Origin: Thermodesulfobacteriota bacterium
Lineage (GTDB): Bacteria > Desulfobacterota > Desulfobacteria > Desulfobacterales > JARGFK01
NCBI GenBank assembly: GCA_040757625.1
Contig: JBFLWU010000007.1
Span: forward strand, 1,110-65,109
DNA: 64,000 nt
Reading direction: 5' to 3'
Both the position numbers and the translations under genes were made by a program. This document shows positions 16,245-35,435 of this stretch, in pieces. The notes beneath the pieces are model-generated. The model was not told the origin of the DNA and did no database searches. It saw nothing but the letters and a program-made list of their open reading frames with translations. The stretch's first letter is position 1; every line of letters starts with the position of its first letter.

Positions 16245-17249
16245 TCATTGAAACAGCACTTCCATGTATTGGTCCACCATGTGACTCAAATCATAACGAG
16301 ATTCAGCCAGTAGGCGTGCGCCATCTCTGAAACTATCCATTTTTTTAGTAATCAGCAAAACTGCATCGACTAACTCTTCAACGTTAACTAATGCATCCTG
16401 TTTCCATAGATCAGCTTTTGGCTTGACAAGAAAACCTGATTTATTAGTAAGGATTTCAGGTAGCACCCCTAATTTGTAGCCCAATACCGGTGTCCCACAT
16501 GATAGTGATTCAAGAACGCTATTAGGACATGCCGCAATAATATCTGTGGAAATAAATATGTTTGAACCACGATAATAATAAGGCAATTCCGAATTTGGCA
16601 CCAACCCTTTATAATCAACGAAAGGATATCTTGAAAAATGGTCTCCCACATTATTATGGGGATTACCAAAAAATAATAATTCAATTTTAAGACCACTCTC
16701 GATTAATTTTTTTGATAACCCAATTGCCATATTTGAATTTTCTACACTTTGGTTTCCTTCAACACTTATTAAACAAACATCTCCTTTGGATTGATACCTT
16801 TTCCCTATTGGGCTAAAATTATTAAGATCAACGCCATTATATATTATCGAAGCTGCGGATTTGGATTTTCCGCAATATGATATCCAACGTTCTTCCACAT
16901 ATTTACTTTGGTATATAACATGATCAGCTAATTTAGAACGTATAATTCGCATAATATAATTTCTAATCTCAGCCATAAAATAGTTTCTTAATTTACTCTT
17001 TTTAAATCGATGTTCGAAGTTGGGATTACCCAATCTCTGAACAACCCTGACACCCTTTTTTTTTAATTCAAACAATTTTTGAAGATTCTTCGTTCCATTT
17101 ATTACTAGAATAGAATCAAGCGAAGGTGTCTCAATATTATAAGTTACTTCAACACCATGGAATCTCAAACCAGCCGAAATTTTTTCTTCAAATGACGGAG
17201 GACCTCCAAACATTCCTCTCAAATCAGGGGTAATACAAATTTTTCTCAT
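16245..17249 (-). CDS. glycosyltransferase, GT-B fold
   Basis: 334 aa with a GT1/GT4-like C-terminal half (CPNSVLESLSCGTPVLG). It overlaps the upstream gene by 4 nt. Confidence 0.7.
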   Translation of the reverse strand: MRKICITPDLRGMFGGPPSFEEKISAGLRFHGVEVTYNIETPSLDSILVINGTKNLQKLFELKKKGVRVVQRLGNPNFEHRFKKSKLRNYFMAEIRNYIMRIIRSKLADHVIYQSKYVEERWISYCGKSKSAASIIYNGVDLNNFSPIGKRYQSKGDVCLISVEGNQSVENSNMAIGLSKKLIESGLKIELLFFGNPHNNVGDHFSRYPFVDYKGLVPNSELPYYYRGSNIFISTDIIAACPNSVLESLSCGTPVLGYKLGVLPEILTNKSGFLVKPKADLWKQDALVNVEELVDAVLLITKKMDSFRDGARLLAESRYDLSHMVDQYMEVLFQ

Positions 17250-18797: not shown

Positions 18798-19934
18798 TTA
18801 CTTCAAATTAACAGGCAGGCACTTTTTTACCCTCACCTGCCATGTATAATTTTCAACATCTAATCGTGATTGTCGCGTTAAACTTATACCCCACATTTTG
18901 CCCTTATAAGCGCGTTGAATGGCCTCCTGCCACTCAGTTAAATTTGCTGAATCGCATAAAACTGAATTATTCTCATTTAATATTTCGCACAACACTTCTA
19001 GATTGCTTGTGATAATTAATCGTTCAGATGCCATGTATTCAAACAGTTTTATAGGACTAAATACTTTTGAAGTATCGCCGCCGCCGCTGACTTCTATCTT
19101 TTTTTGATACGGCATCAACAGAACATTACATGCCGCTAAATATTGCGGAAGCTCTGTGTTTGAAATAAATCCGAAAAATATTAGATTATCAATTCCTCTC
19201 GCCACTGCTTGTTCTTTTCGTGATTCAACACTTCCTGGATCACCGCCCATAATCAAAAATTGAACTTCGGGAAGCACACCGGCAAGTTCCATGATCAATT
19301 CAACCCCACGACCTTCATACAAACTGCCGGAGTAACCGGCTGTATATTTTTGTGGCAGATTCAGCTTTGACCTTGCTTCTTCAGGCGATGGAAGATTGTC
19401 AAAACGTTCGAGATCCACTGCATCGTGAGCCACAAGAATCTCCTTATTCTTCAACCAGCCAGGATATTCCGAAAGCAAAGCCTGTTTAAGAGCATGGGTT
19501 ATAGCAACCAACCGCACAAAACCCTTTCCGGATACAATGAGCCTTAACCATGATGGTCCGATTCTTCCGCCCGGCACCTGGTGCAACTCATAAATAGTCG
19601 GATATCCGAATAAGCTCGAAAGGACGGCGGCAACTGCATTACGGGCAAAAACCATATCCACATTCTTTCTACGAGCATGGAGAAAAGAGGCGATTGCTAT
19701 ATCATACCCTTTCAAATAGGGACTGTTTTTCATCCTATGTATGTCAAATTTATTCCGTATGCCATAATGCCGCCAGATGTCTTTACTTAATCCTTCTAAT
19801 GAGTCATTTCCCTTAACCGCGTAAAGTATCGGCTCATGCCCGTTCTGGACCATGGCCTGGCACATTTTCATTACCTGAATGCTGTTTGCGGTAAGAGATG
19901 GGATTATTGAACCTGAAAAGTATGCAATTTTCAT
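18798..19934 (-). CDS. glycosyltransferase, GT-B fold (GT4-like)
   Basis: 378 aa with N-terminal MKIAYFSGS...ANSIQVMKMCQAM and C-terminal FSPIKLFEYMASERLII. Confidence 0.75.
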   Translation of the reverse strand: MKIAYFSGSIIPSLTANSIQVMKMCQAMVQNGHEPILYAVKGNDSLEGLSKDIWRHYGIRNKFDIHRMKNSPYLKGYDIAIASFLHARRKNVDMVFARNAVAAVLSSLFGYPTIYELHQVPGGRIGPSWLRLIVSGKGFVRLVAITHALKQALLSEYPGWLKNKEILVAHDAVDLERFDNLPSPEEARSKLNLPQKYTAGYSGSLYEGRGVELIMELAGVLPEVQFLIMGGDPGSVESRKEQAVARGIDNLIFFGFISNTELPQYLAACNVLLMPYQKKIEVSGGGDTSKVFSPIKLFEYMASERLIITSNLEVLCEILNENNSVLCDSANLTEWQEAIQRAYKGKMWGISLTRQSRLDVENYTWQVRVKKCLPVNLK

Positions 19935-20505: not shown

Positions 20506-21522
20506 TTAACTTAACTGAAAAATATCCGAACACACTGTTTTCCACAAATCGGCAGCAACGCGGAGGTGATAATTTTTGTTAACAAAAGCACGGCCGTTCT
20601 GGCCCATACGAATTCTCATCTCCGGTTCACCGGCAAGTATTTCCAAATATTTCTTCCAATCTTCCAATGTTTCGGCTAAAAAGCCGTTCCATCCGTGACG
20701 TACAATGTCTTTATTGACCCCGATAGGAGAAGCCACTACCGGTAAACCTGCTGCCATATATTGAAGCAACTTGAAACCAGCTTTCATTCTGGCCCGCTCA
20801 TTATTATTAGGTAAGTACATAATTCCAATATCAATTTCGTTGAAAACCGATGGTTCGAGGCTGATCTCCCAAAGGATAAAGCGTGATTTTACTTCGGGTT
20901 TCAGTTGAGGATCATTACCGGCAATAATTAGGGTTTCACAATTCCGATATTGAGACATGAAATGTAAAACAGATTCAAGAGGTTTCAGAAATAATTCAGA
21001 GAGGTTACTTCCGACCCACCCGATAACACAGCGACTATGATTCTTAGAATGGATATATTGATTAGTCTCGGTATCTACACATGTCGGAATAACATATACC
21101 CGATCATTCATCGAACTGAACCATTCACGCAACTCGTTACAACTGGCAACGATTGCATCCATAAGACCATACCATTGCCGTAGCCGTACCTGTACTTCGT
21201 CTGGATACCATGAACCATCAATTCTTTGAAAACTACCGTCATCTATATCCAAAACGCAGTTAGCGCCCATGTGTCGAGCCATGCTAACCAGAGAAAAAGC
21301 ATGGGTCTTCTGAAAGACCACTAAACGGGGTGTATAAATGAAGCGGAGTTGATCGAGTGCCAAGCGAAGCGTTGTAATATACTCCATTTTTGGATGAAAT
21401 CGCAAAACTCCAGCTTCAATACCAACTTTTTTAAGAAACGGAATCAACTTCAAAACCCGAAAACGATGACTTGCCACCTTCTCGTTTAAAACACTTATGA
21501 AAAGTAATCGACATAAGGGCAT
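20506..21522 (-). CDS. glycosyltransferase, GT-B fold
   Basis: C-terminal AAGLPVVASPIGVNKDIVRHGWNGFL. The track ORF (to 21624) overlaps the upstream MT, so I prefer the ATG at 21522 (MPLCRLLFISVL). Confidence 0.7.
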   Translation of the reverse strand: MPLCRLLFISVLNEKVASHRFRVLKLIPFLKKVGIEAGVLRFHPKMEYITTLRLALDQLRFIYTPRLVVFQKTHAFSLVSMARHMGANCVLDIDDGSFQRIDGSWYPDEVQVRLRQWYGLMDAIVASCNELREWFSSMNDRVYVIPTCVDTETNQYIHSKNHSRCVIGWVGSNLSELFLKPLESVLHFMSQYRNCETLIIAGNDPQLKPEVKSRFILWEISLEPSVFNEIDIGIMYLPNNNERARMKAGFKLLQYMAAGLPVVASPIGVNKDIVRHGWNGFLAETLEDWKKYLEILAGEPEMRIRMGQNGRAFVNKNYHLRVAADLWKTVCSDIFQLS

Positions 21523-21526
21523 TAGT

Positions 21527-22126
21527 CTATTTTTCCAACTCAACTTGCAAATCTCTTGCAGGAATAATTCTAAGTATTGACGACTCATACAAATACAGAA
21601 GATGCTGGCTCCGATTAACCACAATGGACATCAGGAGTGAAATTGGGCCCCGGCCAAACACAAGATGCCTTCTAGTGATGCGCTTGAAATATTTACGCTG
21701 ATACCAACCACCGACACTTGACTCATCGTTAATATAATACTCGAAAGTCCTTAAAGTAAAGAACCGGACATGGGTAGGATCTTGAAATGCTCGCAAGCAT
21801 CCTGCATATGGAAGAGTAATTTGCAGCTTGGCCCCTGGTTTCATAACCCTCGATATTTCATTCAAAACATTATCAAGATTTACAATATGCTCCAAAATAT
21901 GGCTTGCGTTTACTTCATCGAATATATTGGAAGTAAAAGGCAAATTACTATCTTCTAAATCACAAATTACATCGATTCCGCTCATAGGGAACCGATCTAT
22001 TCCGATGAAACCGATCCTCTTCCGTGGACCACAGCCAATATCGAGCCCAAGCTTATTAAATTGTGCAGGCGTATCACGTCCCCAAAGTCGTCCCTGAGCC
22101 TTCTGTATGTAGGACTGTAGATTCAT
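21527..22126 (-). CDS. class I SAM-dependent methyltransferase (Methyltransf_11-like)
   Basis: Motif I is GLDIGCGPRKRIGFIGID, followed by NASHILEHI. The start is uncertain (22126, 22183 or 22207). Confidence 0.75.
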   Translation of the reverse strand: MNLQSYIQKAQGRLWGRDTPAQFNKLGLDIGCGPRKRIGFIGIDRFPMSGIDVICDLEDSNLPFTSNIFDEVNASHILEHIVNLDNVLNEISRVMKPGAKLQITLPYAGCLRAFQDPTHVRFFTLRTFEYYINDESSVGGWYQRKYFKRITRRHLVFGRGPISLLMSIVVNRSQHLLYLYESSILRIIPARDLQVELEK

Positions 22127-22169
22127 ATAAAATCTGTGCAAAAAACTTCTTGTTTGCACTCCAAATAAG

Positions 22170-22793
22170 TTATTTTGAATCATCAGATATGTGCATCTCG
22201 CGAGCAAACTGGAAAAAAGCTTCTATATTGTCACCATTCAGCAGACTTATTGCAGACATAATATATTCAACTGGCCAATCCCACCAAGCTATTCTGAGCA
22301 GTTCGGTTATTTGGGCATCTGTAAACCTCTTACGTATTAAACTTGCAGGATTTCCTCCCACAATCGCATACGGCGGGACATTATTGGTCACTACAGAAGC
22401 AGCCGCAATAACGGCACCATGCCCCACTTCGACACCAGACAGAATGGTTGAACCCTTTCCTATCCACACATCGGAACCTATCAATACATCTCCCTTGGAG
22501 GTCGGATGCCCATCATTATATTTTCCAGGCAAATCGAATCGGGCACGGAATGGGTAGGTTGATATCCAATTTACCGGGTGGTTGCCACCCACAAAAATGG
22601 CAACTTCATCGGCGATTGAACAGAATTTGCCTATTAAAATGCGCCCTTTGTCGCCACGATACTTGATCACGTGTGGAATACCATAGGAGTGATCTCCCAT
22701 GGACAAAGTGCCATCCAAGAGATATCCATGTATTGGTCGATGCTGTTCAGCGAACAAAAGCAAGCGATATGCAATTTTACCAAGAATTGACAT
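22170..22793 (-). CDS. hexapeptide-repeat acetyltransferase (XAT/CatB-related O-acetyltransferase type)
   Basis: 207 aa with [14 protein letters not shown] and the hexapeptide run [31 protein letters not shown]. Confidence 0.85.
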
Positions 22794-22832: not shown

Positions 22833-24212
22833 TCATCCTATGTGTGCACGTGACATACCATAATCTGAGTTTTTAGTTGCATTCAGTCTTCTGATAGAAC
22901 TCGGCAAGATGACAGCAACAGCCACGACAATACCGCCAAGTTTTGCCCAAGCTGCACCGCTTACTCCGGTCCTGGGCACTAACAGTAGCAAGAGTGTGCC
23001 TTGAATTAAAAGGCCAGCCAATCCAGATAACATAGCTGGCCATGCTTTTCCAGTAGCAATCTGCAGACTATTAAGTGGGCTTGTAGCTAAACCTACCATA
23101 CTCGCAAGAATCATAATCAAAAGTGGCTTCTTGGCAGGAAGGAATTCAGTCCCAAAAATAATCTGTATTATTAAATCTCCAAAAACAAACATTATAGCTG
23201 CCAAAACCCCAAAAATAGAAATCAGAGCAAATGTGAATCGAAGTACCAAGGTTTTCAATTGTCGCACTTCTCCATTGAACCACAGCCGACTATATTCTGG
23301 AGTTAAACTGGTCACAAGTGCTTGGGTTGGAATATCAAACAATCCTGTGAGTTGAGAAGCTGCGCGAAAGATGCCGACTGAGAATATATCGGTCAAAAAG
23401 CCGAGCAAAATGACGTCAAGGTACCGATATATAGTCTTGATGAATCCTGAACCGTATCCAATGGTCTGAAACACCCGGACATTTCGCGAAACTTGCCACC
23501 ACATTCTTTTCGGCCGAACGTCAATCTTCGATATATTCATAGCTTTCTTAGCAAGTAAGTAAATTAAAGCACCATCAAAGAGAGATAGAAACACAAGCAC
23601 CCAAACTACCTCCGACAGACCTGAATGATTAATATACAATACTGCTATAAAGGCCAGCTTAATCAAAGAATGAATTACAGATTGATAGAAAGCCCAGGAA
23701 AACTTATCCGCCACTCTTAGTAACGCAAGGGAAGTCGAATAGCACGATTGAAAAATCAATGTAAGCCCATAGATGATTTGGAGGTTTTCCTGCCCAGGGG
23801 ATAGGTTAAGGTACTGCGGTATCACCAATGAAAGAATTGTAACAATTGCAAAAGATAGTATCGACGACAACACGTCGATGCGATAGCAATACCGAATCAG
23901 ATGCCGGACTTGGGCTGTGTCACATTCTGTCAAGGCTTTTGTGACGTAAACCAAGGCAATCTGAGCGTTATTCAGCTTGAACAAACTGCTGACTATGGCA
24001 CAGGTGGCTACAAATAGTGCGATTGTCCCCATACCCCCTGGCCCAAGCATCCTCGCCATCATACCGGTCTGGATAATGCCCAACCCCACCGTGATGGGCG
24101 TTGCCCCCGAAGCCCAACCGGCATTGACCAGTACACGACCAGTCAAAGTGCCCTTGAGTCTGGCAAATGATACTCTCTGCAAGCCTTTAAACATCAGGAA
24201 AGCAGCCCTCAA
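22833..24212 (-). CDS. wzx: Wzx-type flippase (MOP/polysaccharide biosynthesis protein family)
   Basis: 459 aa with about 12 TM helices, in an O-antigen-type locus. An alternative ATG lies at 24194. Confidence 0.75.
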   Translation of the reverse strand: MRAAFLMFKGLQRVSFARLKGTLTGRVLVNAGWASGATPITVGLGIIQTGMMARMLGPGGMGTIALFVATCAIVSSLFKLNNAQIALVYVTKALTECDTAQVRHLIRYCYRIDVLSSILSFAIVTILSLVIPQYLNLSPGQENLQIIYGLTLIFQSCYSTSLALLRVADKFSWAFYQSVIHSLIKLAFIAVLYINHSGLSEVVWVLVFLSLFDGALIYLLAKKAMNISKIDVRPKRMWWQVSRNVRVFQTIGYGSGFIKTIYRYLDVILLGFLTDIFSVGIFRAASQLTGLFDIPTQALVTSLTPEYSRLWFNGEVRQLKTLVLRFTFALISIFGVLAAIMFVFGDLIIQIIFGTEFLPAKKPLLIMILASMVGLATSPLNSLQIATGKAWPAMLSGLAGLLIQGTLLLLLVPRTGVSGAAWAKLGGIVVAVAVILPSSIRRLNATKNSDYGMSRAHIG

Positions 24213-24417: not shown

Positions 24418-25059
24418 CTATACTGTTCTATATTTCTTCATCACTAATACAGTTCGTTCTTCAACATCTCCATATTCAGGTTTTGCAGGCTGCCATATAA
24501 TTTCATCATTTTTTCTATATTTGAAAAATGGAATCCACGATGTTTCTTTGAACCCGCATCGCTGATACATGGCCATTGCTTTGCTGTTTTCAGCAACGCA
24601 TTTAAGAAATATATATGGAACATCAAAATTGTTAAAAGTCCACTCACAAAGCAATAACAAAGCCTGCGTCATCCCCCCCTTACATCCCTCTTCAAATCGT
24701 ACAATTTGCCCTATTTCGAATGTTTTATCAATTGAATCAAATGTAATTCCAATGTGAGCAAAAGATATTTTTTTAAAATTTTCTACGCTAAACAATACCT
24801 GAAAAGGATTATTTTCAATTGTTTTTATCCATCGAAAGGTTCTATCTGTTGACGCATTAAATTCGGATAGGAATGCTTCTCTCCAGGTATTTCTTGCATG
24901 AGTGGCTTTGATGATAAATTCGTCGATTCTAGGCATCTTTGTGGATACAGCACGTATAAAAATCTCATCATTTCCGGAGAAGGTTTTTAACGTTCCTGTA
25001 TGAAGGTATAACCCTTTGTTTTTCAATTCATTAAATAAATACGTTGTTCGTGATTCCAT
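24418..25059 (-). CDS. GNAT-family N-acetyltransferase, probable amino-sugar N-acyltransferase
   Basis: 213 aa. The C-terminal half, FLKCVAENSKAMAMYQRCGFKE, is a GNAT acetyl-CoA motif. It lies immediately downstream of the DegT aminotransferase. Confidence 0.65.
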   Translation of the reverse strand: MESRTTYLFNELKNKGLYLHTGTLKTFSGNDEIFIRAVSTKMPRIDEFIIKATHARNTWREAFLSEFNASTDRTFRWIKTIENNPFQVLFSVENFKKISFAHIGITFDSIDKTFEIGQIVRFEEGCKGGMTQALLLLCEWTFNNFDVPYIFLKCVAENSKAMAMYQRCGFKETSWIPFFKYRKNDEIIWQPAKPEYGDVEERTVLVMKKYRTV

Positions 25060-25068
25060 AAAATCGGT

Positions 25069-26196
25069 TCACGGATCAGATAATATTTCTTTCAATTTAT
25101 CGCAAACAAAAGTGACCTTCTCTCGAGTCATATGAAAACTACTTGGCAGATTAACGCCGTATTGACTGATTTGATAGGCAATGGTATTTTTTCCCCTTGC
25201 CTGCTCAGCTGCCGTACAACCTGAATATGCCGGCAGAGAACTTAAAGGGTAAAAAAACGGGCGGCAGTCAATGCCTCTTTCAGACATCGCTTTAATAATA
25301 TCCTCTTTTGTGAGTCGAAACCGTGGTTCAGGAATAATGGTCACCATCCAGTATGTATTTTTTACATCATATGGTTCATAATTCAGCATTAATCCTTCAA
25401 TATTTGCAAGCTCCTTGTAATACCATGAGAATATTTCTCTTTTTCTTTCTATAAGTTCCTCTATTCTTTCTAATTGAGCCAATCCCAATGCCGCTTGCAT
25501 ATTCGACATTCTGTATTTATAACCTATTTCCGTATTCCAAAACATTTTTCCCCCGGCTTTGCGGCCATGATCCCGCAAAAACTGACACCGGTTAAACATG
25601 GTTTCATCATCCGTGAGAAGCATTCCGCCTTCACCTGTAGTCAATGTTTTTGTGCCGTGAAAGCTGAAGGTGCTTGCCAATCCGAAGCTACCCGCTTTTT
25701 TCTTTTTGTATTCCGCTCCCAGTGATTGCGCCGCATCTTCAATGACTGCGATACCGTGCCGAGAAGCCGTCTCGAGAATTCCATCCATGTCCGGCATATT
25801 CCCGTAAAGATCCACCAGGATCACAGCTCTTGTTTTAGGTGTTATACTGCCTATTAAAGACTGAACAGATAAACACCATGTTTTGGAGTCAATATCAGCG
25901 AATACGGTTTTGGCATTTACATATGAAATTGGCGCAGAGCTTGCAATCCATGTTATTTCAGGAACGATAATCTCATCATCAGGTTTCAGGTCAAGGCTTG
26001 CCAATGAAAGATGGAGCGCAGAGGTGCACGAAGGAAGCGCCATAGCGTATTTTCTTCCGACATATGCCGCAAATGCTGCTTCGAACCGGTTATGATATAT
26101 ACTGTTATTCTCGTACCAGGCATTTCTCACAGCATCAGCTACATAAGAAACTTCTTTTTCGGTAATCCAGGGACCGGCTACTGGAATGCGTTCCAT
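25069..26196 (-). CDS. DegT/DnrJ/EryC1/StrS-family sugar aminotransferase
   Basis: 375 aa. SFHGTKTLTTGEGGML retains the PLP lysine, so this looks like a true aminotransferase and not an E1-type 3-dehydrase. Confidence 0.9.
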   Translation of the reverse strand: MERIPVAGPWITEKEVSYVADAVRNAWYENNSIYHNRFEAAFAAYVGRKYAMALPSCTSALHLSLASLDLKPDDEIIVPEITWIASSAPISYVNAKTVFADIDSKTWCLSVQSLIGSITPKTRAVILVDLYGNMPDMDGILETASRHGIAVIEDAAQSLGAEYKKKKAGSFGLASTFSFHGTKTLTTGEGGMLLTDDETMFNRCQFLRDHGRKAGGKMFWNTEIGYKYRMSNMQAALGLAQLERIEELIERKREIFSWYYKELANIEGLMLNYEPYDVKNTYWMVTIIPEPRFRLTKEDIIKAMSERGIDCRPFFYPLSSLPAYSGCTAAEQARGKNTIAYQISQYGVNLPSSFHMTREKVTFVCDKLKEILSDP

Positions 26197-26230
26197 TATT
26201 TTAATTTCCTACTTATTATTTTTGAAGATC

Positions 26231-27481
26231 TCAATGAAGCAATTTCAAATAAGGTAACGGAATAATAAATTCTCCGCCTCTGTTTCGATGAGATGTCAAC
26301 TGGCTGATAATTTCATCAGCATAATTCCATGCGGTAAGAAGTATGATATCGGGCTTATCAATTTCAATCTGCTCAACCGGATAAATCTTTAAATTTGTTC
26401 CAGGAATAATATAGCCCTGTTTTTGTTGATTTCTATCTACCACATACTCGAATGTTTCAGAGCCAAGCCCAAAATAATTGAATAAAACTGTAGCTTTTGC
26501 AGCAGCACCATAGGCAATTATTTTCTTCCCCTCATTTTTCAACTGCTCCAGCATGCTACAAAGATCTTTTTTTAATTTCATAACTCGGTTAGCAAATTCG
26601 GTATAAAACTGGTCTTTACCAATCCCCTCTTGCTGTTCTTTTTCTTGAAAATCATTTAACCTGTCCGTCTTCTCATGTTCGCTAGGATGTCCTGCAAATA
26701 TCCGAAGGCTACCGCCCTGTGCGGGTATGTATTGAACATCGAAAATTTCAAGGTTATGCTTTTTAAACAGCAAGTTCAAACACCGCAATGAATAGTAACA
26801 CAGATGCTCATGATAGATTAAATCAAACGCACCAACATCGATCATATATTTGACATAAGCTGCTTCTACAGAAATTACCCCGGAAGGAGACAGCAGGATT
26901 TTCATTCCCCCGACAAATTCATGGAGATTTGCAACATGCGCTAAAACATTATTGGCATGAATTACCGATGGAGCTTTATATCTCTGTCTAATGCGTTTGG
27001 CCAGCTCTTCACCAAAGAATTCAACAACCGTCCGGATATTTCTTTTTTCCTGGGCTATTTTTGCAACATTCGCCGCAGGTTCAATTCCTAATACCGGAAT
27101 TCCGGCTTTTTGATAAAATTGGAGAAGATAGCCGTCATTACTTGCTATTTCGACAACAAGGTCACTTTTACCGAGGCGATATTTTTCTATAAGTTGATTC
27201 GCAAGATTGTCTGCTCCCGATACGAGCGTATCCGCACAGGATGAAAGATACATATAATTGCTGAATAATACTTCTGGTGAAATTGTCTCTCGTATCTGAA
27301 GCAACCCGCACCTATTACATTTTACAAGTGTCAACGGATATTTATCAACGCGTTCGTTAAATTTTGTCTCAGGAATCAAGTTGTTTGCCAGAGGTTGCAG
27401 CCCGAGGTCAAGAATAGTTAATAAATCATTACCGTTACAGATTCGACAATTTTTTTCTAAGGTCAGATAAGATCTTGCCAT
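26231..27481 (-). CDS. NDP-hexose C-methyltransferase (TylCIII-like; zinc-binding N-terminus, SAM-MT domain and C-methyltransferase C-terminal domain)
   Basis: 416 aa with CRICNGNDLLTILDLGLQPLANNL...CNRCGLLQ and VVEIASNDGYLL. Confidence 0.8.
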   Translation of the reverse strand: MARSYLTLEKNCRICNGNDLLTILDLGLQPLANNLIPETKFNERVDKYPLTLVKCNRCGLLQIRETISPEVLFSNYMYLSSCADTLVSGADNLANQLIEKYRLGKSDLVVEIASNDGYLLQFYQKAGIPVLGIEPAANVAKIAQEKRNIRTVVEFFGEELAKRIRQRYKAPSVIHANNVLAHVANLHEFVGGMKILLSPSGVISVEAAYVKYMIDVGAFDLIYHEHLCYYSLRCLNLLFKKHNLEIFDVQYIPAQGGSLRIFAGHPSEHEKTDRLNDFQEKEQQEGIGKDQFYTEFANRVMKLKKDLCSMLEQLKNEGKKIIAYGAAAKATVLFNYFGLGSETFEYVVDRNQQKQGYIIPGTNLKIYPVEQIEIDKPDIILLTAWNYADEIISQLTSHRNRGGEFIIPLPYLKLLH

Positions 27482-27514
27482 TTAATTCTCTTATTATACA
27501 GAACAACCAAATTG

Positions 27515-28651
27515 TTAATTCCATTCAATTCTGGCATATTTTGGAAGGAAACGATCTTGTCTCTGATAAAGAGATTTAATATCCAAAGGTTCTTTTGAAT
27601 CATCACCTATTATAACCCACTTCTGATTTTCCTGCACAGACGGAAATGCGCTGAACTTAAACATCATATCTTTCATTTTATGATTATATTTGCATATAAA
27701 ATAACGGACTGAATCAACAGAATCCGGGTGGTTAGACATGTTCCCCATCATTTCAGAATTATAATATTGTTCGATAACGTTTCTGATTTCAGGTAGATGT
27801 GGTTTCATTACTTCTTGCGCCTTTGGCAGTATTTTGGCCCCTTTCGACAATCTGTTTTCAACTATAAACAAATTACCGCTCTTTGGGGCTTTTTTCCCGT
27901 AACGAACAGTAAAAACATTATGGAATTCATTCAATTTAGATAATAGCTGTTCCATGCTGAAAAAATAATGTCCATACACCACGCAAGACAAACCACAGGT
28001 TTTTGTAATTTGAATCCGTTCCCCATAAAAAGATTTTTTTACGATATTTGATACAGGATCATAAAATCGAGTCTGCTGCTGAAAATAAATCGGGGCATCC
28101 GAGGGATAATTTTGTTTTTTACTAATCCCAAAACCAAATAGACTCTGTTCGTTTCTTAATTTTTTTAGATTTAACGCATAACCTGACATGGGAGAAGACA
28201 AAATCTGACCCTCCCTCGATAATTTAAATCTTTTATAGATTACACCGTACTCGTCATGATTCTCTGCAAGGACTTGACGGATATTCGCAGTGGTGGAAAA
28301 ATCAAGAATATAGTCGGAATTTATTACAAACCCCCAATCTGTTTCAAGTTTTTGCAAACCTTCGGTTGCATTGATTGTCCATTGTGAACCATGCCATCGT
28401 CCATCTGGTCCCCAAAAAGTTTGTGGAGAATTGTATACCATCCAATTCTTTGCGCTTGTCCAGCTTTTTAATATATCGTAGGATTCATCTGTTGTTCCAC
28501 CATCCACGATCACAATCTGGTCTGCAAATTTGCCCCATGAATCTATACAGGCAAGATAAGCGAGATAGCCTCTTGAGAATGAATTTGTTGAAGTTGTAAT
28601 CACCCCGATGGAAGGCAAAGAACTCATTTGCCTCCCCCATGATACGTGCAT
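27515..28651 (-). CDS. hypothetical protein, possibly GT-A-like glycosyltransferase
   Basis: 378 aa. The N-terminal IGVITTSTNS...IVIVDGGTTDES resembles GT2, and the rest is unassigned. An alternative ATG lies at 28627. Confidence 0.45.
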   Translation of the reverse strand: MHVSWGRQMSSLPSIGVITTSTNSFSRGYLAYLACIDSWGKFADQIVIVDGGTTDESYDILKSWTSAKNWMVYNSPQTFWGPDGRWHGSQWTINATEGLQKLETDWGFVINSDYILDFSTTANIRQVLAENHDEYGVIYKRFKLSREGQILSSPMSGYALNLKKLRNEQSLFGFGISKKQNYPSDAPIYFQQQTRFYDPVSNIVKKSFYGERIQITKTCGLSCVVYGHYFFSMEQLLSKLNEFHNVFTVRYGKKAPKSGNLFIVENRLSKGAKILPKAQEVMKPHLPEIRNVIEQYYNSEMMGNMSNHPDSVDSVRYFICKYNHKMKDMMFKFSAFPSVQENQKWVIIGDDSKEPLDIKSLYQRQDRFLPKYARIEWN

Positions 28652-28710
28652 AGCCTCATCTTATTATTTTTCACCATTGTATTTTGATAACACAATATTT
28701 ATTGCAGTTA

Positions 28711-29829
28711 TCAAACCCATAACATATTTTTATTTCTTGCCTCTAAAATGAAGAATTTAAGATTTTCTATACTTAACACATTATTTGATTCATAGAATTT
28801 TTTATACCATTCTATAGTCAACACAATAGCAGTTTCAACATCCCAGACAGTATTCCATTTCAACTTTAGCCGTGCTTTTGAACTGTCAAGTTTTAACATA
28901 CCCGCTTCATGTGGATAGTCAGTTTTTTGTTGTATTTCATAATTAACTTCCGGCCATGCTCTTTTAACTAATCCCACAACCTCTCCCACAGAAAGATTCT
29001 TGTCATCAGAGGGTCCAAAATTCCATGCCTTGGCACATTCTTTTTGTCCTTCTAAAAGCTTCTGTCCAAGTAGCAGATATCCACTTAATGGTTCAAGAAC
29101 ATGCTGCCATGGCCTGATAGATTCCGGGTTTCTAATCTGAACCTTCTCATTGCGGCTCACTGCGCGAACCATATCAGGAATTAGTCTATCAGGAGCCCAA
29201 TCACCACCACCAATTACATTTCCTGCACGAGCACTAGCTATCAATGTACTATTAGCACTTAAATGTTTTGAACTATTAAAAAAAGAGTGGCGCCAGCAAT
29301 TGGTGATGATTTCAGCGCATCCTTTCGATGCGCTATATGGATCATAGCCACCTACTGGATCAATCTCTCGATAACCCCAAGGCCATTCCTTGTTTTCATA
29401 ACACTTATCACTTGTAACATTGACTATTGCTTTGACAGAATCGCAGTTTCTTACCGCTTCAAAAACATTAATGGTTCCCATAACGTTGCTGGTAAATGTT
29501 TCAACCGGATCCTTATAAGAAGCTCTAACGATAGCCTGCGCAGCAAGATGAAAGACAATTTCAGGTTGTTGTTCTTTGAATGTGTATTTGACATTTTCTG
29601 CATCACGAATATCGCCGATAATAGAGTTTATACCCAGATCTAGCAAATTAAAGTGGTTAGGTTCGGTTGCTGGTTTTAGGGAGTACCCTGTAACCTTTGC
29701 ACCCATCTGTGATAGCCATAGTGTCAGCCATGACCCTTTAAAACCTGTATGGCCTGTAACTAAGACTCGCCGGCCTTGATATATTCGATTAAATAAACTT
29801 TGAAATCGACTTATTTCCAAATTTTCCAT
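28711..29829 (-). CDS. rfbG: CDP-glucose 4,6-dehydratase
   Basis: 372 aa with VLVTGHTGFKGSWLTLWL, a YSASKGCAE catalytic motif, and adjacency to rfbF. Confidence 0.9.
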   Translation of the reverse strand: MENLEISRFQSLFNRIYQGRRVLVTGHTGFKGSWLTLWLSQMGAKVTGYSLKPATEPNHFNLLDLGINSIIGDIRDAENVKYTFKEQQPEIVFHLAAQAIVRASYKDPVETFTSNVMGTINVFEAVRNCDSVKAIVNVTSDKCYENKEWPWGYREIDPVGGYDPYSASKGCAEIITNCWRHSFFNSSKHLSANSTLIASARAGNVIGGGDWAPDRLIPDMVRAVSRNEKVQIRNPESIRPWQHVLEPLSGYLLLGQKLLEGQKECAKAWNFGPSDDKNLSVGEVVGLVKRAWPEVNYEIQQKTDYPHEAGMLKLDSSKARLKLKWNTVWDVETAIVLTIEWYKKFYESNNVLSIENLKFFILEARNKNMLWV

Positions 29830-30590
29830 TTTGCTTGGCCTTTTTCCCAGAGTTTATTTAAATATTCCATATCTCTCATGGTGTCCATGCAGGCCCAGAA
29901 CCCCTGATGTTTGTAAACCATCAGTTGTCCTTCTTTAGCAATCTGTTCTAGCAACCCGATCTCCAAATCGCATTCATCATCTTCAGAAAGATAGTCGAAG
30001 ACTTTTCTGTTAAATACAAAAAACCCCCCATTGACAACAGCTAATCCTTTTTCAGGTTTCTCCATGAATGCTTCTACATTATCGCCGTCTATCTTTAACT
30101 CACCGAAACGCGATGTGGGATTTATTCCGGTCACTGTCGCCAACTTTCCGTGGCTTAGATGAAATGAAACGAGCTTATTAATATCTACGTTCCCAACCCC
30201 ATCTCCATATGTAAGCATAAAAGTTTCTTCGTCTATATATTTTTGGACTTTCTTTATTCTTGCGCCCTTCAACGATTTCTCTCCGGTATCTGAAAGGGTG
30301 ATGCGCCATCCTTTTTCACCATAAGTTTTGTGAACGCAGAGTTTTTCCGGCTGGCCCAGTTCGATACTGATATCGCTATTCATCAGTTCATAATGGCAGA
30401 AATAGTCTTTTATCATTTCGCCTTTATAACCCAGAGCAAGGACAAAATCTTTAAATCCGTAATGTGAATAAATCTTCATGATGTGCCATAGAACTGGACG
30501 GTTACCGATTTTTACCATTGGCTTGGGACGAAATTCAGTTTCTTCACGGAGCCGTGTACCAAGGCCTCCGCATAAAATAACAACTTTCAT
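29811..30590 (-). CDS. rfbF: glucose-1-phosphate cytidylyltransferase
   Basis: 259 aa with MKVVILCGGLGTRLREETEFRPKPMVKIGNRPVLWHIMK. Confidence 0.9.
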   Translation of the reverse strand: MKVVILCGGLGTRLREETEFRPKPMVKIGNRPVLWHIMKIYSHYGFKDFVLALGYKGEMIKDYFCHYELMNSDISIELGQPEKLCVHKTYGEKGWRITLSDTGEKSLKGARIKKVQKYIDEETFMLTYGDGVGNVDINKLVSFHLSHGKLATVTGINPTSRFGELKIDGDNVEAFMEKPEKGLAVVNGGFFVFNRKVFDYLSEDDECDLEIGLLEQIAKEGQLMVYKHQGFWACMDTMRDMEYLNKLWEKGQAKWKIWK

Positions 30591-30631: not shown

Positions 30632-31504
30632 TTATTTAATAGCAACAGCATAAATGTTTGCATCAAGAACATAACTGGATTTTTTCTGACGATTTACGAA
30701 AATATCAATTATAAATAAAGGCAATAAAATCCAATTTATTGGAACAGCTAAAATATATCGCAAATATTTATTTCCAAATGATAAACTATTGCTTACGTAA
30801 TGAATGAGAAAGATACCGAGTGCATGAAGAGGGCCATCAAGAGAACCAATTTCTATAATGCCAAACTGATTACATAGTATTCTTAAACCTTCTTCTGAAA
30901 AGCGATAATTATCTCCGCCATGATAGGGATATACCCAAGGGGATGACACATAAAGCATGCCACCCTTTTTAAGTATTCTATATGATTCCTCAATGACTTT
31001 GAAAGGGTAACTTGTATGCTCGATTACACCAGATATAACTATCAGATCAAAAGAATTATTCGGGAAAGGTATATATTCACCCTGCGAAACGACATCCACA
31101 TGTTCTTTGGGAACTACCTCGAGTTCGATAATATTCTTCCGGTATTTGTCTTCAAATGGCTGGTTGTATCCGATATACAACGCCTTATAAAAAGAGTTGT
31201 TTTGAGCAAGCGAATGGAGCAAACTTAAATGGCTGAATCTACGTTTTGATTTTATCCGTGGCGCTTTTAATATCAAATATAACTTTTCGAGTGTTTTCCA
31301 TCTTTTTTTTTTAAATTTTTCATAAGGCTCGGCCCAAACCGAGACCGATTTTTTATCCAGAAAACACGGCTTGCCGTCCCATTCATTGTACTGACGTTTA
31401 CACACCGGACAAATGAACAACCTGTGTTCTAGTATATATTCCACAGGTGGATGAGCATCACAATACGGACAGGTCAACTGAACACCGTTAATTGTTGATT
31501 CCAT
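30632..31504 (-). CDS. SAM-dependent methyltransferase with N-terminal zinc-ribbon and C-terminal membrane helices
   Basis: 290 aa with CPYC...CPVC, a Methyltransf_11-like FDLIVISGVIEHT...LKKGGMLYV, and a hydrophobic tail. It is the first gene of the island operon. Confidence 0.7.
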   Translation of the reverse strand: MESTINGVQLTCPYCDAHPPVEYILEHRLFICPVCKRQYNEWDGKPCFLDKKSVSVWAEPYEKFKKKRWKTLEKLYLILKAPRIKSKRRFSHLSLLHSLAQNNSFYKALYIGYNQPFEDKYRKNIIELEVVPKEHVDVVSQGEYIPFPNNSFDLIVISGVIEHTSYPFKVIEESYRILKKGGMLYVSSPWVYPYHGGDNYRFSEEGLRILCNQFGIIEIGSLDGPLHALGIFLIHYVSNSLSFGNKYLRYILAVPINWILLPLFIIDIFVNRQKKSSYVLDANIYAVAIK

Positions 31505-31787
31505 ATCTTTTAAACATCCAGCGTCGAAGGATAATCCCCATTCGAAGTAATTTTTTTTTAACAGAGTAATTTCAAAAAGTTATGGTTTCCCCCAATAGTT
31601 TAACGGGACGTCGGTGAAGAGAATGCACGGCGAAAAAAGCTGTTAAGCTGATAAAAGAAAACAGGTTAAGATTGAAATGCGGCTGACGGCGCAGGGCGCA
31701 CGGCTCACGGTGCAAAAACAGGGGAAGGCCAAGTACATATTTTCATAAATACGGTTATCTCATTGCCCGTTCGCTGCACTCATTCGA

Positions 31788-32272
31788 GACACAGAGGTCA
31801 CGGAGAAACCTTTCTTTTTGCCCATCGGGAGATGACGATGCATGAAAAAGCCTGAGCCTTCGGTATACTTTTTAGGTTCTTCTCCCAACTAGTTGGGAGA
31901 AAGGATTCCAGGATTCAAGGGGTCCAGGGGCCAAGTGTTTGTTTTCAATCAGTTATTAAATTCCAAGTGCATTTTTCGTCATTATTGCAACAAAAAAAAC
32001 TAAAGGATTTGAAATTCAAGAGCATTTCACTTGAACCCTTGAATCCTCGGCCCCTTGAACCCTTGGGATTCATGTCCAACATTCTTAAAGATGATTTTAC
32101 TCATTTTGCAGAATTAACTACAACTAATCCGGAGATGATACACTTTTTATTATCACCGCATAGACACCGTGTATGCTTATGCGACAAGCGGATATGTGTT
32201 TTTATCTGAACCGGCATCTCCCGGTTCAGATAAACTGATTCACCCCTCTGTGCCCTCTGTGGCTCTGTGGTG
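31788..32272. repeat. RE-A composite element with nested inverted word arms
   Basis: The left half is GACACAGAGGTCACGGAG plus a degenerate hairpin. The interior has palindrome TTCTCCCAAC-TA-GTTGGGAGAA (31879-31900) and CAAGGGG/CCCCTTG word arms (31901-31936 versus 32028-32071). The right half is TTATCTGAACCGG-CATCTC-CCGGTTCAGATAA plus CCCTCTGTGCCCTCTGTGGCTCTGTGGTG. Confidence 0.8.
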
Positions 32273-32433
32273 AAAAACACGTTAGGATATTTCCAAAACA
32301 GAGCATTAAGTATATAGATTTAAAAGAAACAAGTGCAGCGTCTTTATACAGCTCCGCCTTCTGAGTTCCATGAGCAAACCCGGCTTAATATACCAACATT
32401 ATTATATATTTTTAATTAAAATGGAGTTGATGC

Positions 32434-32820
32434 TTAAAACACACGGCCGATTTCATCGGCCGCTTCGTCCTGGGTCAGATCCGCCGGCTCTGCGACATTG
32501 GCCTCCCGGGCCAGCTCGCGGATCTGCTTTTTGATCTCATTGTATTCAAACAGCTTGCGCCTTAAAAAGCTTACGGTCAGGCCGGCCTTGGCCTCCAGGC
32601 CGCTGGGCGTCAGCTTATAAATATACTGCAGTTTATTTTCGGAATCCTTGAAGCGGTTGATTTTAACCAGTCCTTTTTTCGTCAGTTCGGAGAGACAGTA
32701 GTTGACCTTGCCCAGGCTGATGCCCATTTCCCGGGCCATTTCCCGCTGGGTGAAGTCGGGGTTGCGGCTTAGAATCTTGAGCAGCCGGTAGCGGATTTCC
32801 TGCTGGTAATCTGCGTTCAT
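32434..32820 (-). CDS. MarR-family, EPS-associated transcriptional regulator (TIGR04176-like)
   Basis: 128 aa with a winged helix, RYRLLKILSRNPDFTQREMAREMGISLGKVNYCLSELTKKGLVK. Confidence 0.8.
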   Translation of the reverse strand: MNADYQQEIRYRLLKILSRNPDFTQREMAREMGISLGKVNYCLSELTKKGLVKINRFKDSENKLQYIYKLTPSGLEAKAGLTVSFLRRKLFEYNEIKKQIRELAREANVAEPADLTQDEAADEIGRVF

Positions 32821-33338: not shown

Positions 33339-34277
33339 TCAGCCTTGTTGGCCCCCAATCAGCGTTTCCAGGATGGCCTTGTGCATGTGCATCTTGTTTT
33401 CCGACTGGTCCCAGACAACCGAGGCCGGCCCCTCCAGGACCGAGTTGCTGATTTCTTCGCCGCGGTGCGCCGGAAGGCAGTGCATGACGATGGCCTCTTT
33501 GGGGGCTTTTTTCATGAGGGTGCTGTTGACCTGAAAGGCGCTGAAGGCGCGCTTGCGGGAAGCGGACTCGCTTTCCTTGCCCATGCTGGCCCAAACATCC
33601 GTATAGATCACGTCGGCATCCTTCACGGCCTTGACCGGATCGGAGATCACCCGGATCCGGCCGGTTTTAAGGGCCAGCGCCTTTTTCATGACGCTCTCGT
33701 CCGGATAGTACCCTTCCGGGCAGGCCAGGACCAGGTTCAGGTCCAGCACCGCCGCGGCGTTGATCCACGAGTGCGAGACATTGTTGCCGTCGCCGACCCA
33801 GACGAAGTTGATGCCGGCGTACCCTTTTTTATGTTCAATCACGGTCATCAGGTCGCTCAACACCTGACAGGGGTGATACATATCCGTCAGGGCGTTGATG
33901 ACCGGTATGGCGGAAAATTCGGCAAACTCCTGCAGCAGGTCCTGGGAATAGGTCCGGATCGCCAGGCAGTCCAGATATCGGGAAAGCACCCGGGCGGTGT
34001 CCCGCACCGGCTCGGCCCGGGCCATCTGGGTGTCCCTGGCGCTGATGAAAATCGAGCTGCCGCCCAGCTGGGCCATGGCCACTTCAAAGGACAGGCGCGT
34101 GCGGGTGGAGTGCTTGTCGAAGATGAGGCCGAGGGTTTTGCCTTTAAGGGGCATGTCCAGGCGCCCCTCCTTGTGATGCTTCTTTAATTCGGCCGCCCGT
34201 TTAAAGAGCCGATCGAAGTCTTTTTTTTCCAGATCCAGTAGGGTTAAAATGTCTTTTTTCAAAATCGCTTTCTCCAT
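33339..34277 (-). CDS. argF: ornithine carbamoyltransferase
   Basis: STRTRLSFE, HPCQ and HCLPA motifs. I prefer the ATG at 34277 (MEKAILKKDILTL), because the track start at 34319 is a TTG inside a repeat. Confidence 0.9.
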   Translation of the reverse strand: MEKAILKKDILTLLDLEKKDFDRLFKRAAELKKHHKEGRLDMPLKGKTLGLIFDKHSTRTRLSFEVAMAQLGGSSIFISARDTQMARAEPVRDTARVLSRYLDCLAIRTYSQDLLQEFAEFSAIPVINALTDMYHPCQVLSDLMTVIEHKKGYAGINFVWVGDGNNVSHSWINAAAVLDLNLVLACPEGYYPDESVMKKALALKTGRIRVISDPVKAVKDADVIYTDVWASMGKESESASRKRAFSAFQVNSTLMKKAPKEAIVMHCLPAHRGEEISNSVLEGPASVVWDQSENKMHMHKAILETLIGGQQG

Positions 34278-34290
34278 AAATGAAAAATAT

Positions 34291-34862
34291 ATTGCACCGC
34301 AAAGGCGCAAAGTTAGCAAAGATCATTTTCCTGTTGCTTTTCGCTGAGAAGGCGAAAAGCAATCGTCAACGCCCTTTCAGGGATATAAATTCCCACTGTC
34401 GAGCAAACACCCCTGATCAGAGAACGTGTTTGTTTAATAAAGCTGAAAGCTTTTTCCTTTGGCGTCCTCTCAACGGCAAAGGAAATTTCTTGGCGCCCTC
34501 AGCGTCTCGATCGCAGCGGGCGGTTGATTTCATGCTCTTCTTCAAAGCACTAGTTGGACCAGTATATCCATAGAACCGGCACCGCAAAGGCGCAAAGTTA
34601 GCAAAGATTATTTTCCTGTTGCTTTTCGCTGAGAAGGCGAAAAGCAAACGTCAACGCCCTTTCAGGGATATAAATTCCCACTGTCGAGCAAATGCACCTA
34701 ATACGAACATGTCCGTTTAATAAAGCTGAAAGCTTTTTCCTTTGGCGACCTCTCACCGGCAAAAGAAATTTCTTGGCGCCCTCTGCGTCCTGAGACTATC
34801 GAGCGGTTGATTTCATGCTCTTCTTCAAAACACCGGTTGGAACAGTATATCCATAGAACCGG
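34291..34862 (+). repeat. tandem duplication (periods 285 and 283 bp) of an expanded RE-B element
   Basis: CACCGCAAAGGCGCAAAGTT starts recur at 34295, 34580 and 34863. Each unit has hairpin TTGCTTTTCGC-TGAGAAG-GCGAAAAGCAA, a roughly 90-bp centre and a second hairpin of the type CCTTTGGCG(T)-CCTCTCA-(A)CGGCAAAGG. The array begins 14 nt upstream of the argF ATG. Confidence 0.9.
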
Positions 34863-35435
34863 CACCGCAAAGGCGCAAAGTTGGCAAAGATCATTTTCCT
34901 GTTGCTTTTCGCTGAGAAGGCGAAAAGCGAACATGATCACTTTATAACTTCAGAATCTTCAGGAAGTTCACGTACAACCCTAACGATTCCTTCCCGCATG
35001 AGCGCTACGTTAAAATTTAACAATAATCCCAACTGAAGACCGGACAATTTTAAATAGGTTAATAATTGGGCTTTATGAATCGGTTCGATTTCATTTACCG
35101 ATTTTAATTCAACAATTATTTGATCTTCAACAATGACATCCAACCGGTAACTACAGTCCAGTTTAATACCTTTATACTCAACAAATAACGGTTCCTGCCG
35201 TTTAAATTTTATACCCTTGAGGCTAAACTCACAGCAAAGACATTCCTCATACGTTGATTCAAGCAAACCGGGGCCAAGGTACTTATGAACTTCTATCGCC
35301 GACCCTATTATTTTATTGCTTAATTGATTGATATCCATTGTCAAGTCAATCGACAAGTTGAAAAGCTTTTTCCTTGACGGCCGCTCACCGTCAAGGAAAA
35401 AAATATTTCTCAGCGTCCTCGGCGCCTTTGCGGTG
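34863..35435 (+). mobile_element. RE-B element carrying a GxxExxY gene as cargo (candidate autonomous copy)
   Basis: Perfect 14-bp inverted termini, CACCGCAAAGGCGC (34863-34876) and GCGCCTTTGCGGTG (35422-35435). Hairpin 1 lies at 34904-34928. Hairpin 2, TTTTTCCTTGACGG-CCGCTCA-CCGTCAAGGAAAAA, lies at 35367-35401. Only the GxxExxY ORF lies between them. Mobility is an inference. Confidence 0.6.
34937..35356 (-). CDS. GxxExxY protein (PD-(D/E)XK nuclease-fold family)
   Basis: GLLESTY motif and [17 protein letters not shown] core. It is a paralogue of 3357-3740. The start is TTG 35356 or ATG 35338 (MDINQL). Confidence 0.85.

Follow-up and report, generated by a model that had tools for sequence, protein, structure and literature searches.

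To our knowledge, textbooks treat sugars activated by cytidine diphosphate (CDP) as precursors of the 3,6-dideoxyhexoses only. In that pathway RfbF (DdhA) and RfbG (DdhB) provide CDP-4-keto-6-deoxyglucose, and E1 (RfbH/DdhC) and E3 (DdhD) complete the enzyme set; E1, which like the sugar aminotransferases is a member of the DegT family, presumably descends from an aminotransferase of this kind, and its engineered His-to-Lys variants reportedly aminate CDP-4-keto-6-deoxyglucose. Here we describe a gene module (24418-30590, minus strand) present in a 64 kb stretch of DNA, hereafter called the window, from the metagenome-assembled genome (MAG) of an uncultured Thermodesulfobacteriota bacterium; three of its proteins (X, the C-methyltransferase and the GNAT, introduced below) have 100% identical counterparts among the NCBI proteins of this MAG. 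The module shares the first two enzymes and their product with the 3,6-dideoxyhexose pathway, but no E1 or E3 was found in the window and the DegT protein of the module keeps the lysine. Besides RfbF and RfbG, it encodes a protein we call X, a C-methyltransferase, an aminotransferase and an N-acyltransferase, and we consider it rather probable that this operon makes and installs a CDP-activated, C-methylated and N-acylated 4-amino-6-deoxy sugar, with the positions C-3 and C-4 assigned by homology.

Several described systems share part of this gene set. Azotobacter vinelandii is the reported source of CDP-vinelose (6-deoxy-3-C-methyl-2-O-methyl-L-talose), isolated in the 1960s, and modules of the CDP-vinelose type have in common with the window the CDP activation, the front end made of RfbF and RfbG, a C-methyltransferase of the same clade (50-52% identity) and an extra methyltransferase. 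In three such loci (L011, which is Geminocystis NIES-3709, L012 and L013) genes for an RmlC-like epimerase and an RmlD-like reductase come after the C-methyltransferase, in some cases together with one for a CmcI O-methyltransferase. The rfbF genes of L011 and L012 score 328-372 bits on TIGR02623, and the L013 open reading frame (ORF), as delimited, scores 253 bits, below the cutoff; of the 4,6-dehydratases preceding the C-methyltransferase, the one from L012 passes the RfbG cutoff (468 bits) while those from L011 (230 bits) and L013 (195 bits) stay below it. The window has neither the epimerase nor the reductase (tblastn for the RmlC-like protein; RfbG is the only short-chain dehydrogenase/reductase, or SDR, of the surrounding island); instead, its 4-keto group is predicted to be transaminated and N-acylated, and the rare GT2-like X is inserted in the module. 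A further arrangement of this kind is known from Sinorhizobium meliloti, where SMb21416-18 correspond to ddhA, ddhB and an "NDP-hexose 3-C-methyltransferase" (PMC4053727). C-methylation of CDP-sugars is therefore not new, since rfbF-rfbG-C-methyltransferase modules are recurrent; the new part is the predicted fate of the 4-keto group, which would be transaminated and N-acylated where those modules epimerise and reduce. An earlier note on this DNA had called the whole an unusual nucleotide-sugar route, which holds for the amination and acylation branch and not for the C-methylation. In the literature that we searched, no paper on a CDP-linked amino-sugar pathway was found, and nothing relevant on the combination of a CDP-4-keto-6-deoxy sugar with a C-methyltransferase and an aminotransferase.

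Other likenesses come from sugars activated by guanosine (GDP), deoxythymidine (dTDP) and uridine (UDP) diphosphates. The route to GDP-perosamine and GDP-N-acetylperosamine (Gmd, Per and an N-acetyltransferase) combines, as is predicted for the window, a 4,6-dehydratase, a C-4 aminotransferase and an N-acetyltransferase to give a 4-acetamido-4,6-dideoxyhexose; the window differs from it by the use of CDP in place of GDP, by starting from glucose and not mannose, by the added C-methylation and by having a GNAT as N-acyltransferase. The dTDP branched sugars of actinomycetes (tetronitrose with TcaB9, kijanose with KijD1, mycarose with MtmC) share with the window the C-methyltransferase family and its catalytic motif, but these routes are presumed to be dTDP-based, are found in Actinobacteria, serve mostly secondary metabolites or glycolipids, and their C-methyltransferases are only about 33% identical to that of the window. 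Kansosamine is 4-amino-4,6-dideoxy-3-C-methyl-2-O-methyl-mannose. Its decorations (6-deoxy, 3-C-methyl, 4-acylamino and O-methyl) match those of the product predicted here, which differs in being CDP-linked and part of a Gram-negative surface glycan. N-acyl-kansosamine occurs in the lipooligosaccharide of Mycobacterium kansasii (PMC4403928). Finally, the ArnA dehydrogenase/ArnB route to UDP-4-amino-4-deoxy-L-arabinose (UDP-Ara4N) and the Ugd plus UXS pair share with the loci related to our module, described below, a 6-dehydrogenase, a UXS/ArnA-like decarboxylase (STSE/YxxxK/RxFN), a predicted C-4 aminotransferase and a predicted subsequent N-acylation; unlike UDP-Ara4N synthesis, these loci have an RfbF-type cytidylyltransferase at their head and a C-methyltransferase, and no Ugd or UXS is encoded in the window.

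The CDP front end and the tailoring enzymes

The six genes adjoin each other with none missing, which confirmed, by domain and motif scores, the contiguous series rfbF, rfbG, GT-A-like gene, C-methyltransferase, aminotransferase and GNAT given in the earlier note. The gaps between them are of 9 to 59 bp (the GNAT gene starts 9 bp past the aminotransferase gene), rfbF and rfbG overlap by 19 nt, and no terminator-like site was found on the minus strand between 24100 and 32400. The G+C content of the module is 0.34-0.43 and rfbG presents no compositional anomaly. The glucose-1-phosphate cytidylyltransferase RfbF (29811-30590, minus strand) matches the equivalog model TIGR02623 with 349.4 bits for a cutoff of 300.25, over residues 1-258 of 259, and its membership of this equivalog together with its pairing with a CDP-glucose 4,6-dehydratase leads us to infer that it uses cytidine triphosphate (CTP). 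RfbG (28711-29829, minus strand) scores 509.5 bits on the TIGR02622 equivalog (cutoff 278.45), and its only PDB matches at E<=1e-20 are two CDP-glucose 4,6-dehydratases, 1rkx (4.5e-120) and 1wvg (1.5e-116); an exact-sequence look-up with the window RfbG returned no record.

Within the island, a 4-keto sugar can come from RfbG only, because no other SDR or dehydratase is encoded there; the island holds no alternative nucleotidyltransferase either, and tblastn over the 64 kb found no second SDR and no homologue of Ugd, UXS, RmlC, CmcI or WbqC. The earlier note had named another pathway, for example one from a UDP-N-acetylhexosamine (UDP-HexNAc), as a possible home for the C-methyltransferase and the aminotransferase. 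We searched for such a pathway and reject it: the only UDP-HexNAc enzyme is a WecB 2-epimerase located 10 kb away, there is no PglF/PseB/FnlA-type dehydratase, no UDP-HexNAc, GDP or dTDP dehydratase was found in the island, and the module has no alternative nucleotidyltransferase.

A related alternative is that RfbF and RfbG feed a CDP-3,6-dideoxyhexose (or other) route whose E1 and E3 lie elsewhere in the genome, the C-methyltransferase, aminotransferase and GNAT working on a GDP-, dTDP- or UDP-4-keto sugar that comes from outside the island. The best characterised homologue of the aminotransferase does use a GDP-sugar, those of the C-methyltransferase use dTDP-sugars, and our view is limited to 64 kb of a MAG. 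Nevertheless, tblastn with the aminotransferase detected no second DegT-family gene that could be an E1 in these 64 kb, and a search for the plant-type 2Fe-2S motif of E3, which was a regular-expression check only, gave no convincing match, the lone one near 50109 having no supporting homology; the statement of the earlier note that the window has no E1/E3 is thus upheld with that limit. The absence from the island of another dehydratase or nucleotidyltransferase and the operon-like packing speak against this alternative as well, and an rfbF-like gene heads all the related modules, even those without RfbG, which argues that CDP-glucose is the module's own precursor. We consider it very improbable that the two parts of the module belong to separate pathways.

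The C-methyltransferase (26231-27481, minus strand) is a TylCIII/TcaB9/MtmC-type enzyme of the family that methylates nucleoside diphosphate (NDP)-4-keto sugars with S-adenosylmethionine (SAM). Both of its domains score above the Pfam cutoffs (PF08421 71.6 bits, PF08484 171.6 bits) and the protein aligns end to end with the three-domain structures 4rv9, 5t64 and 3ndi (MtmC, KijD1 and TcaB9; 1.3e-78, 6e-64 and 1e-59, respectively). The zinc cysteines Cys12/15/55/58 are kept, and YHEH at residues 223-226 aligns with YHEH of MtmC and YDEH of TcaB9 and KijD1, a Y-x-E-H motif in which we take the Glu and His to be catalytic from the TcaB9 mutant structures 4e2w-4e33. CDP-4-keto-6-deoxyglucose is the predicted substrate, as expected for its clade because the 50-52% identical C-methyltransferases of L011-L013 follow rfbF and rfbG. 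By homology with MtmC, TcaB9 and KijD1 we infer that the methyl group goes to C-3. A NovU-like methylation at C-5, giving a 5-C-methyl or gem-dimethyl sugar, or a stereochemistry unlike that of any named sugar, appears improbable to us: C-3 and C-5 both flank the 4-keto group, and in the related loci the substrate would be a 4-keto-pentose, whose unsubstituted C-5 could be attacked sterically, but the three solved homologues are all 3-C-methyltransferases with the shared YxEH motif, and the rfbF-rfbG-C-methyltransferase-RmlC-RmlD modules fit 3-C-methyl-6-deoxyhexoses such as vinelose.

For the aminotransferase (25069-26196, minus strand; PF01041, 369 bits), a DegT-family enzyme dependent on pyridoxal phosphate (PLP), the best PDB match is the Caulobacter GDP-perosamine synthase (6.4e-78, 37.6% identity over a full-length alignment). 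Its SFHGTKTL segment places Lys183 at the position of the SFFGNK lysine of the perosamine synthase 3bn1, so that the PLP lysine recognised in the earlier note is indeed in place. The score on the RfbH/E1 model NF011936 is 171 bits for a cutoff of 423, and the E1 structure 3bb8 comes at 2e-31. Because the Schiff-base lysine is kept (it is a histidine in E1) and the RfbH score lies below the cutoff, the enzyme is a transaminase and not an E1-type 3-dehydrase. The next matches are PglE, ArnB and the LegC/PseC models, the top characterised ones being all C-4 enzymes, while the C-3 aminotransferases QdtB, WbpE and DesV score far lower (about 1e-39), and the module contains no 3,4-ketoisomerase. We therefore predict, by homology, that the enzyme aminates C-4 of the methylated CDP-4-keto sugar.

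The last enzyme, a GNAT N-acyltransferase (24418-25059, minus strand), passes the Pfam cutoffs of PF13302 (33.8 bits vs 25.4) and PF00583 (24.8 vs 20.7). A profile made from six syntenic orthologues retrieved from the PDB only amine N-acetyltransferases, namely SpeG (2e-10), AAC(6') (3e-7) and PseH (1e-4), of which PseH is a nucleotide-amino-sugar N-acetyltransferase. The GNAT is thus predicted to acetylate or otherwise acylate the 4-amino group.

The gene identities and the catalytic residues described above are observed, as is the absence of competing enzymes in the island; after the RfbG step, every substrate, the C-3 and C-4 positions, the stereochemistry, the acyl group and the role of X are predictions. 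In the proposed pathway, RfbF would convert CTP and glucose 1-phosphate into CDP-D-glucose and RfbG would turn this into CDP-4-keto-6-deoxy-D-glucose. The C-methyltransferase would then transfer a methyl group from SAM next to the 4-keto group, exploiting the acidity there, at C-3 by homology; this step has to precede amination because the aminotransferase consumes the ketone. Conversion of the 4-keto into a 4-amino group and acetylation or other acylation of this amine by the GNAT would give CDP-4-acylamido-4,6-dideoxy-3-C-methyl-D-hexose. A probable further O-methylation would be carried out by the product of a methyltransferase gene just upstream of rfbF, which we call MT_up, before X and/or a GT4 glycosyltransferase pass the sugar to an undecaprenyl-linked repeat unit and Wzx and a Wzy-like polymerase take over. 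The CDP-linked, C-methylated and N-acylated amino-6-deoxyhexose that the earlier note had put forward thus receives in silico support from the equivalog cutoffs, the single source of 4-keto sugar, the related C-methyltransferases that stand behind rfbF-rfbG elsewhere, the C-4-like aminotransferase with its lysine and the co-inheritance of the module, and it is the simplest account of these data.

Related loci and the exchange of the front end

This co-inheritance is seen in about eight independent, diverged metagenomic loci (among them L001, L002-L004, L005, L006, L007/L008, L014 and L015), which present the same gene order: an rfbF-like gene, a generator of the 4-keto group, X, the C-methyltransferase, sometimes a methyltransferase, the aminotransferase, the GNAT and Wzx. 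Such a shared order far exceeds chance. By tblastn, the window proteins are identical to their counterparts at 51-67% for RfbF, 36-75% for X, 45-89% for the C-methyltransferase, 58-86% for the aminotransferase and 31-75% for the GNAT. Compared with L006, the closest locus, the ratio of nonsynonymous to synonymous substitution rates (dN/dS) is 0.11-0.21 at dS values of 0.43-0.74, which indicates purifying selection. The earlier note had delimited the module at 24418-30590; the six genes are there, but the module reaches further, to 31504, because homologues of MT_up (30632-31504, minus strand, 41 bp from rfbF) sit within the related modules, with 53% identity to the methyltransferase inside the L002-L004 module and 50.5% in L015. 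MT_up belongs to the class I SAM methyltransferases (PF08241, 43.5 bits) and carries a Cys4 zinc ribbon at its N-terminus, and it probably adds a further O- (or N-) methyl group to the sugar or to the glycan.

Where the window differs from its relatives is in the generator of the 4-keto group. Wherever the sequence ahead of X is visible in a related locus, it encodes a 6-dehydrogenase for nucleotide sugars and an SDR of 357 aa, never RfbG, and among about nine loci with a visible upstream region the window alone carries RfbG. The dehydrogenase is Ugd-like (398-442 bits on TIGR03026), and in L006 the fragment directly upstream of X contains the Ugd motif GFGGSCFPKD. The 357-aa SDR reaches only 57 bits on the RfbG model, has as best solved relative the human UDP-glucuronate decarboxylase 2b69 (2.5e-54) and keeps the UXS motifs STSEIYGDP, ACYDESKR and RPFNNYGP; L005:1567-4821 is an example of this Ugd/UXS-type front end. 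Since the relatives carry these Ugd/UXS-like genes, the window has neither Ugd nor UXS and its RfbG shares no more than 23-24% identity with their SDR, the window reads as a non-orthologous replacement of the dehydrogenase and decarboxylase pair by RfbG; no remnant of the replaced genes was detected in the window. Both front ends give an NDP-4-keto sugar, and these differ only at C-5, which carries H in one case and CH3 in the other. The reading of the earlier note is in this way extended, the locus being a front-end-swapped variant of a module that otherwise starts with Ugd and a UXS-like decarboxylase.

The rfbF-like gene stays at the head of every module; on TIGR02623 those of L005 and L002 score 319-340 bits, and that of L001, at 299 bits, falls barely short of the cutoff of 300.25. 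RfbG belongs to a CDP-specific family. Because a cytidylyltransferase heads every module and RfbG is CDP-specific, it is simplest to suppose that all the modules of this family work on CDP-sugars. The intermediate of the relatives would then probably be a CDP-4-keto-pentose, obtained through a CDP-glucose 6-dehydrogenase and a CDP-glucuronate decarboxylase; no description of a CDP-glucuronate or CDP-xylose pathway was found in the literature that we searched. More tentatively, and with somewhat more doubt than confidence, we propose an undescribed family of CDP-based branched amino sugars with two interchangeable front ends, in which the swap in the window would give CDP-4-acetamido-4,6-dideoxy-3-C-methyl-hexose. 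Separately, the PDB series 8vr2/8vr3/8vr5 brings together an SDR similar to the UXS-like one of the relatives (1.2e-38) and DegT aminotransferases that match the window aminotransferase (about 1e-46). This series may represent a characterised decarboxylase-aminotransferase pathway; no paper on it was found in the literature searched.

A replaced front end could also have left a recent and partly functional hybrid, in which enzymes adapted to a pentose handle CDP-4-keto-6-deoxyglucose inefficiently and the real sugar is simpler, a 6-deoxyhexose or a non-aminated C-methyl sugar. The presence of RfbG in the window only and the Ugd still found in the nearest relative, L006, are what one would expect of such a hybrid. 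On the other hand, all the ORFs are intact, the dN/dS values are low (though they span both lineages and not the window lineage after the swap alone), nothing remains of Ugd or UXS, and the uniform G+C content of the island indicates that the swap is not very recent. Moreover, the C-methyltransferase clade naturally follows RfbG elsewhere, and the island has no 4-ketoreductase to finish a simpler sugar. We give the hybrid little chance, and retain the complete pathway to the N-acylated amino sugar as the preferred reading.

Protein X, glycan assembly and the surrounding island

Protein X is encoded between rfbG and the C-methyltransferase gene (27515-28651, minus strand); the longest ORF has 378 aa, whereas a Met 8 codons downstream is the first residue of the NCBI protein and of every homologue (370 aa, start 28627). 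Its sequence scores remain under the thresholds of PF00535 (18.1 vs 23.3) and PF13704 (21.1 vs 27.5) and no NCBIfam model matches it. The AlphaFold2 model (pLDDT 90.7, pTM 0.89) presents a GT-A fold, for which Foldseek found SunS (7e-10), ThuS, WrtF, TarP and TarS with E-values up to 1e-7. X is rare: 15 homologues were found among 5.8e9 clustered proteins, 62 representatives at E<=1e-30 among 1.84e9, and a single distant match in a scan of 185,579 species genomes. The ten outlying sequence relatives that were considered are all true PF00535 GT2 proteins. Invariant motifs are VDGGTTD, for nucleotide binding, TDW (D105) and SDY (D113, in xSDY), the position of the DxD being occupied by the single invariant Asp D113. 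What the earlier note had called a GT-A-like unknown has thus kept its fold, according to the model, and can be described more closely as a rare, divergent relative of GT2, which is probably the glycosyltransferase for the unusual CDP-sugar.

X always adjoins the C-methyltransferase, even in the P0009 locus, which has neither aminotransferase nor GNAT, and X and the C-methyltransferase seem to form the conserved core of the module. In P0009 (JGI 3300042731), X and the C-methyltransferase stand with an LbH acyltransferase and a CmcI methyltransferase in place of the aminotransferase and the GNAT, and in L009:491-2891 X is followed by an RmlD-like SDR and then by an apparent remnant of the aminotransferase C-terminus. 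This constant neighbourhood, the one Asp in place of a DxD and the scores below the GT2 cutoffs would also suit an X that is a nucleotide-sugar-binding pathway enzyme or an accessory protein, for instance one modifying the CDP-sugar or presenting it to the C-methyltransferase, with the transfer left to the GT4 glycosyltransferase encoded at 18798-19934 (minus strand; PF00534). The latter is equally conserved, being 29-80% identical in L001-L007 and kept in all the related loci, and is an alternative candidate for transferring the special sugar or for extending from it. We regard a non-transferase role of X as unlikely, although clearly less so than the other alternatives weighed here: the GT-A fold of the model has genuine glycosyltransferases as its best matches, the outlying relatives are true GT2 proteins, and the proposed pathway has no missing chemical step that X could fill. 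The role as glycosyltransferase of the module is therefore the one that we prefer for X.

The module lies in a Wzx/Wzy-type polysaccharide cluster on the minus strand, an island covering about 6-32 kb of the window whose G+C content of 0.35-0.45 is below that of its flanks (0.50-0.59). Directly downstream of the module, the Wzx-type flippase (22833-24212, minus strand; PF01943, 45.3 bits) is 25-46% identical to the Wzx that follows the module in L001-L007 and L010. The Wzy polymerase is presumably a multi-pass membrane protein of 510 aa without Pfam match (17246-18778, minus strand), which shares 24-34% identity with proteins of similar size, also without Pfam match, in L002-L005 and L010, so that the assembly machinery is co-inherited with the sugar module. 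Two adjacent genes of L005 resemble the methyltransferase at 21527-22207 (57% identity) and the GT4 glycosyltransferase at 20506-21624 (50%). The other genes of the island are limited to glycosyltransferases, methyltransferases, a carbamoyltransferase, WecB, Wzx, the Wzy-like protein and a WecA-type initiating transferase.

Upstream of the module, a non-coding gap of 929 bp (31505-32433) is the probable promoter or regulatory region of the operon as well as the island boundary; no Rfam family was found in it or elsewhere in the window. Beyond it lies a gene for a MarR-type winged helix-turn-helix protein (32434-32820; PF13412/MarR) with a core-genome-like G+C content of 0.535. Other island genes would decorate the glycan further. 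A NodU/CmcH-type carbamoyltransferase (9210-10958, minus strand; PF02543 and PF16861) suggests an O-carbamoylated glycan, and an exceptionally high number of small SAM methyltransferases, with four of class I found besides MT_up (14840-15475, 15501-16235, 21527-22207 and 8554-9195, all on the minus strand, one of the four without Pfam match), suggests that it is heavily methylated. Just outside the island, a gene of the PD-(D/E)XK nuclease superfamily (PDDEXK_3, 148 bits; 34937-35356, minus strand) has an ornithine carbamoyltransferase gene (33339-34319) on one side and, on the other, a gene for an acetylornithine-type class-III aminotransferase (35441-36631).

Weight and meaning of the proposed pathway

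Several observations weigh against a CDP-linked, C-methylated and N-acylated amino sugar as the product of the module. The characterised homologues of its tailoring enzymes all use other nucleotides, dTDP for MtmC, TcaB9 and KijD1, GDP for perosamine synthase and UDP for PglE, ArnB and PseH, and the nucleotide specificity of the C-methyltransferase, aminotransferase and GNAT cannot be read from their sequences. The closest relative, L006, whose C-methyltransferase and aminotransferase are 89% and 86% identical to those of the window, has a Ugd-type front end, so that a pentose may have been the substrate on which the downstream enzymes evolved, and they might handle a 6-deoxyhexose poorly. Methylation may take place at C-3 or at C-5. 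The annotation of the GNAT is weak (33.8 bits) and its AlphaFold2 model, built from two sequences, has a pLDDT of only 39. As for X, it misses the canonical DxD and falls under the Pfam cutoffs for GT2. Set against these points are the observed synteny, the selection acting on the genes and the island's single source of 4-keto sugar, and it is on this balance that we favour the pathway.

The practical impact of these observations is modest, every enzyme coming from a known family and the host being an uncultured MAG. If the proposed pathway is true, the known nucleotide sugars would grow by one and the natural aminotransferases would gain a specificity, the enzyme of the window being the first natural CDP-4-keto-sugar 4-aminotransferase, and the related loci would predict two further new activities, those of a CDP-glucose 6-dehydrogenase and a CDP-glucuronate decarboxylase. 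The comparison of the loci also shows that the genes generating the 4-keto group are exchanged in nature while the tailoring enzymes stay, which is of direct use for glyco-engineering and for the prediction of glycans from metagenomes. Should the family with two interchangeable front ends exist as proposed, the window would be the genetic ground for assigning CDP-sugars to all its members, the Ugd-like and UXS-like enzymes among them.

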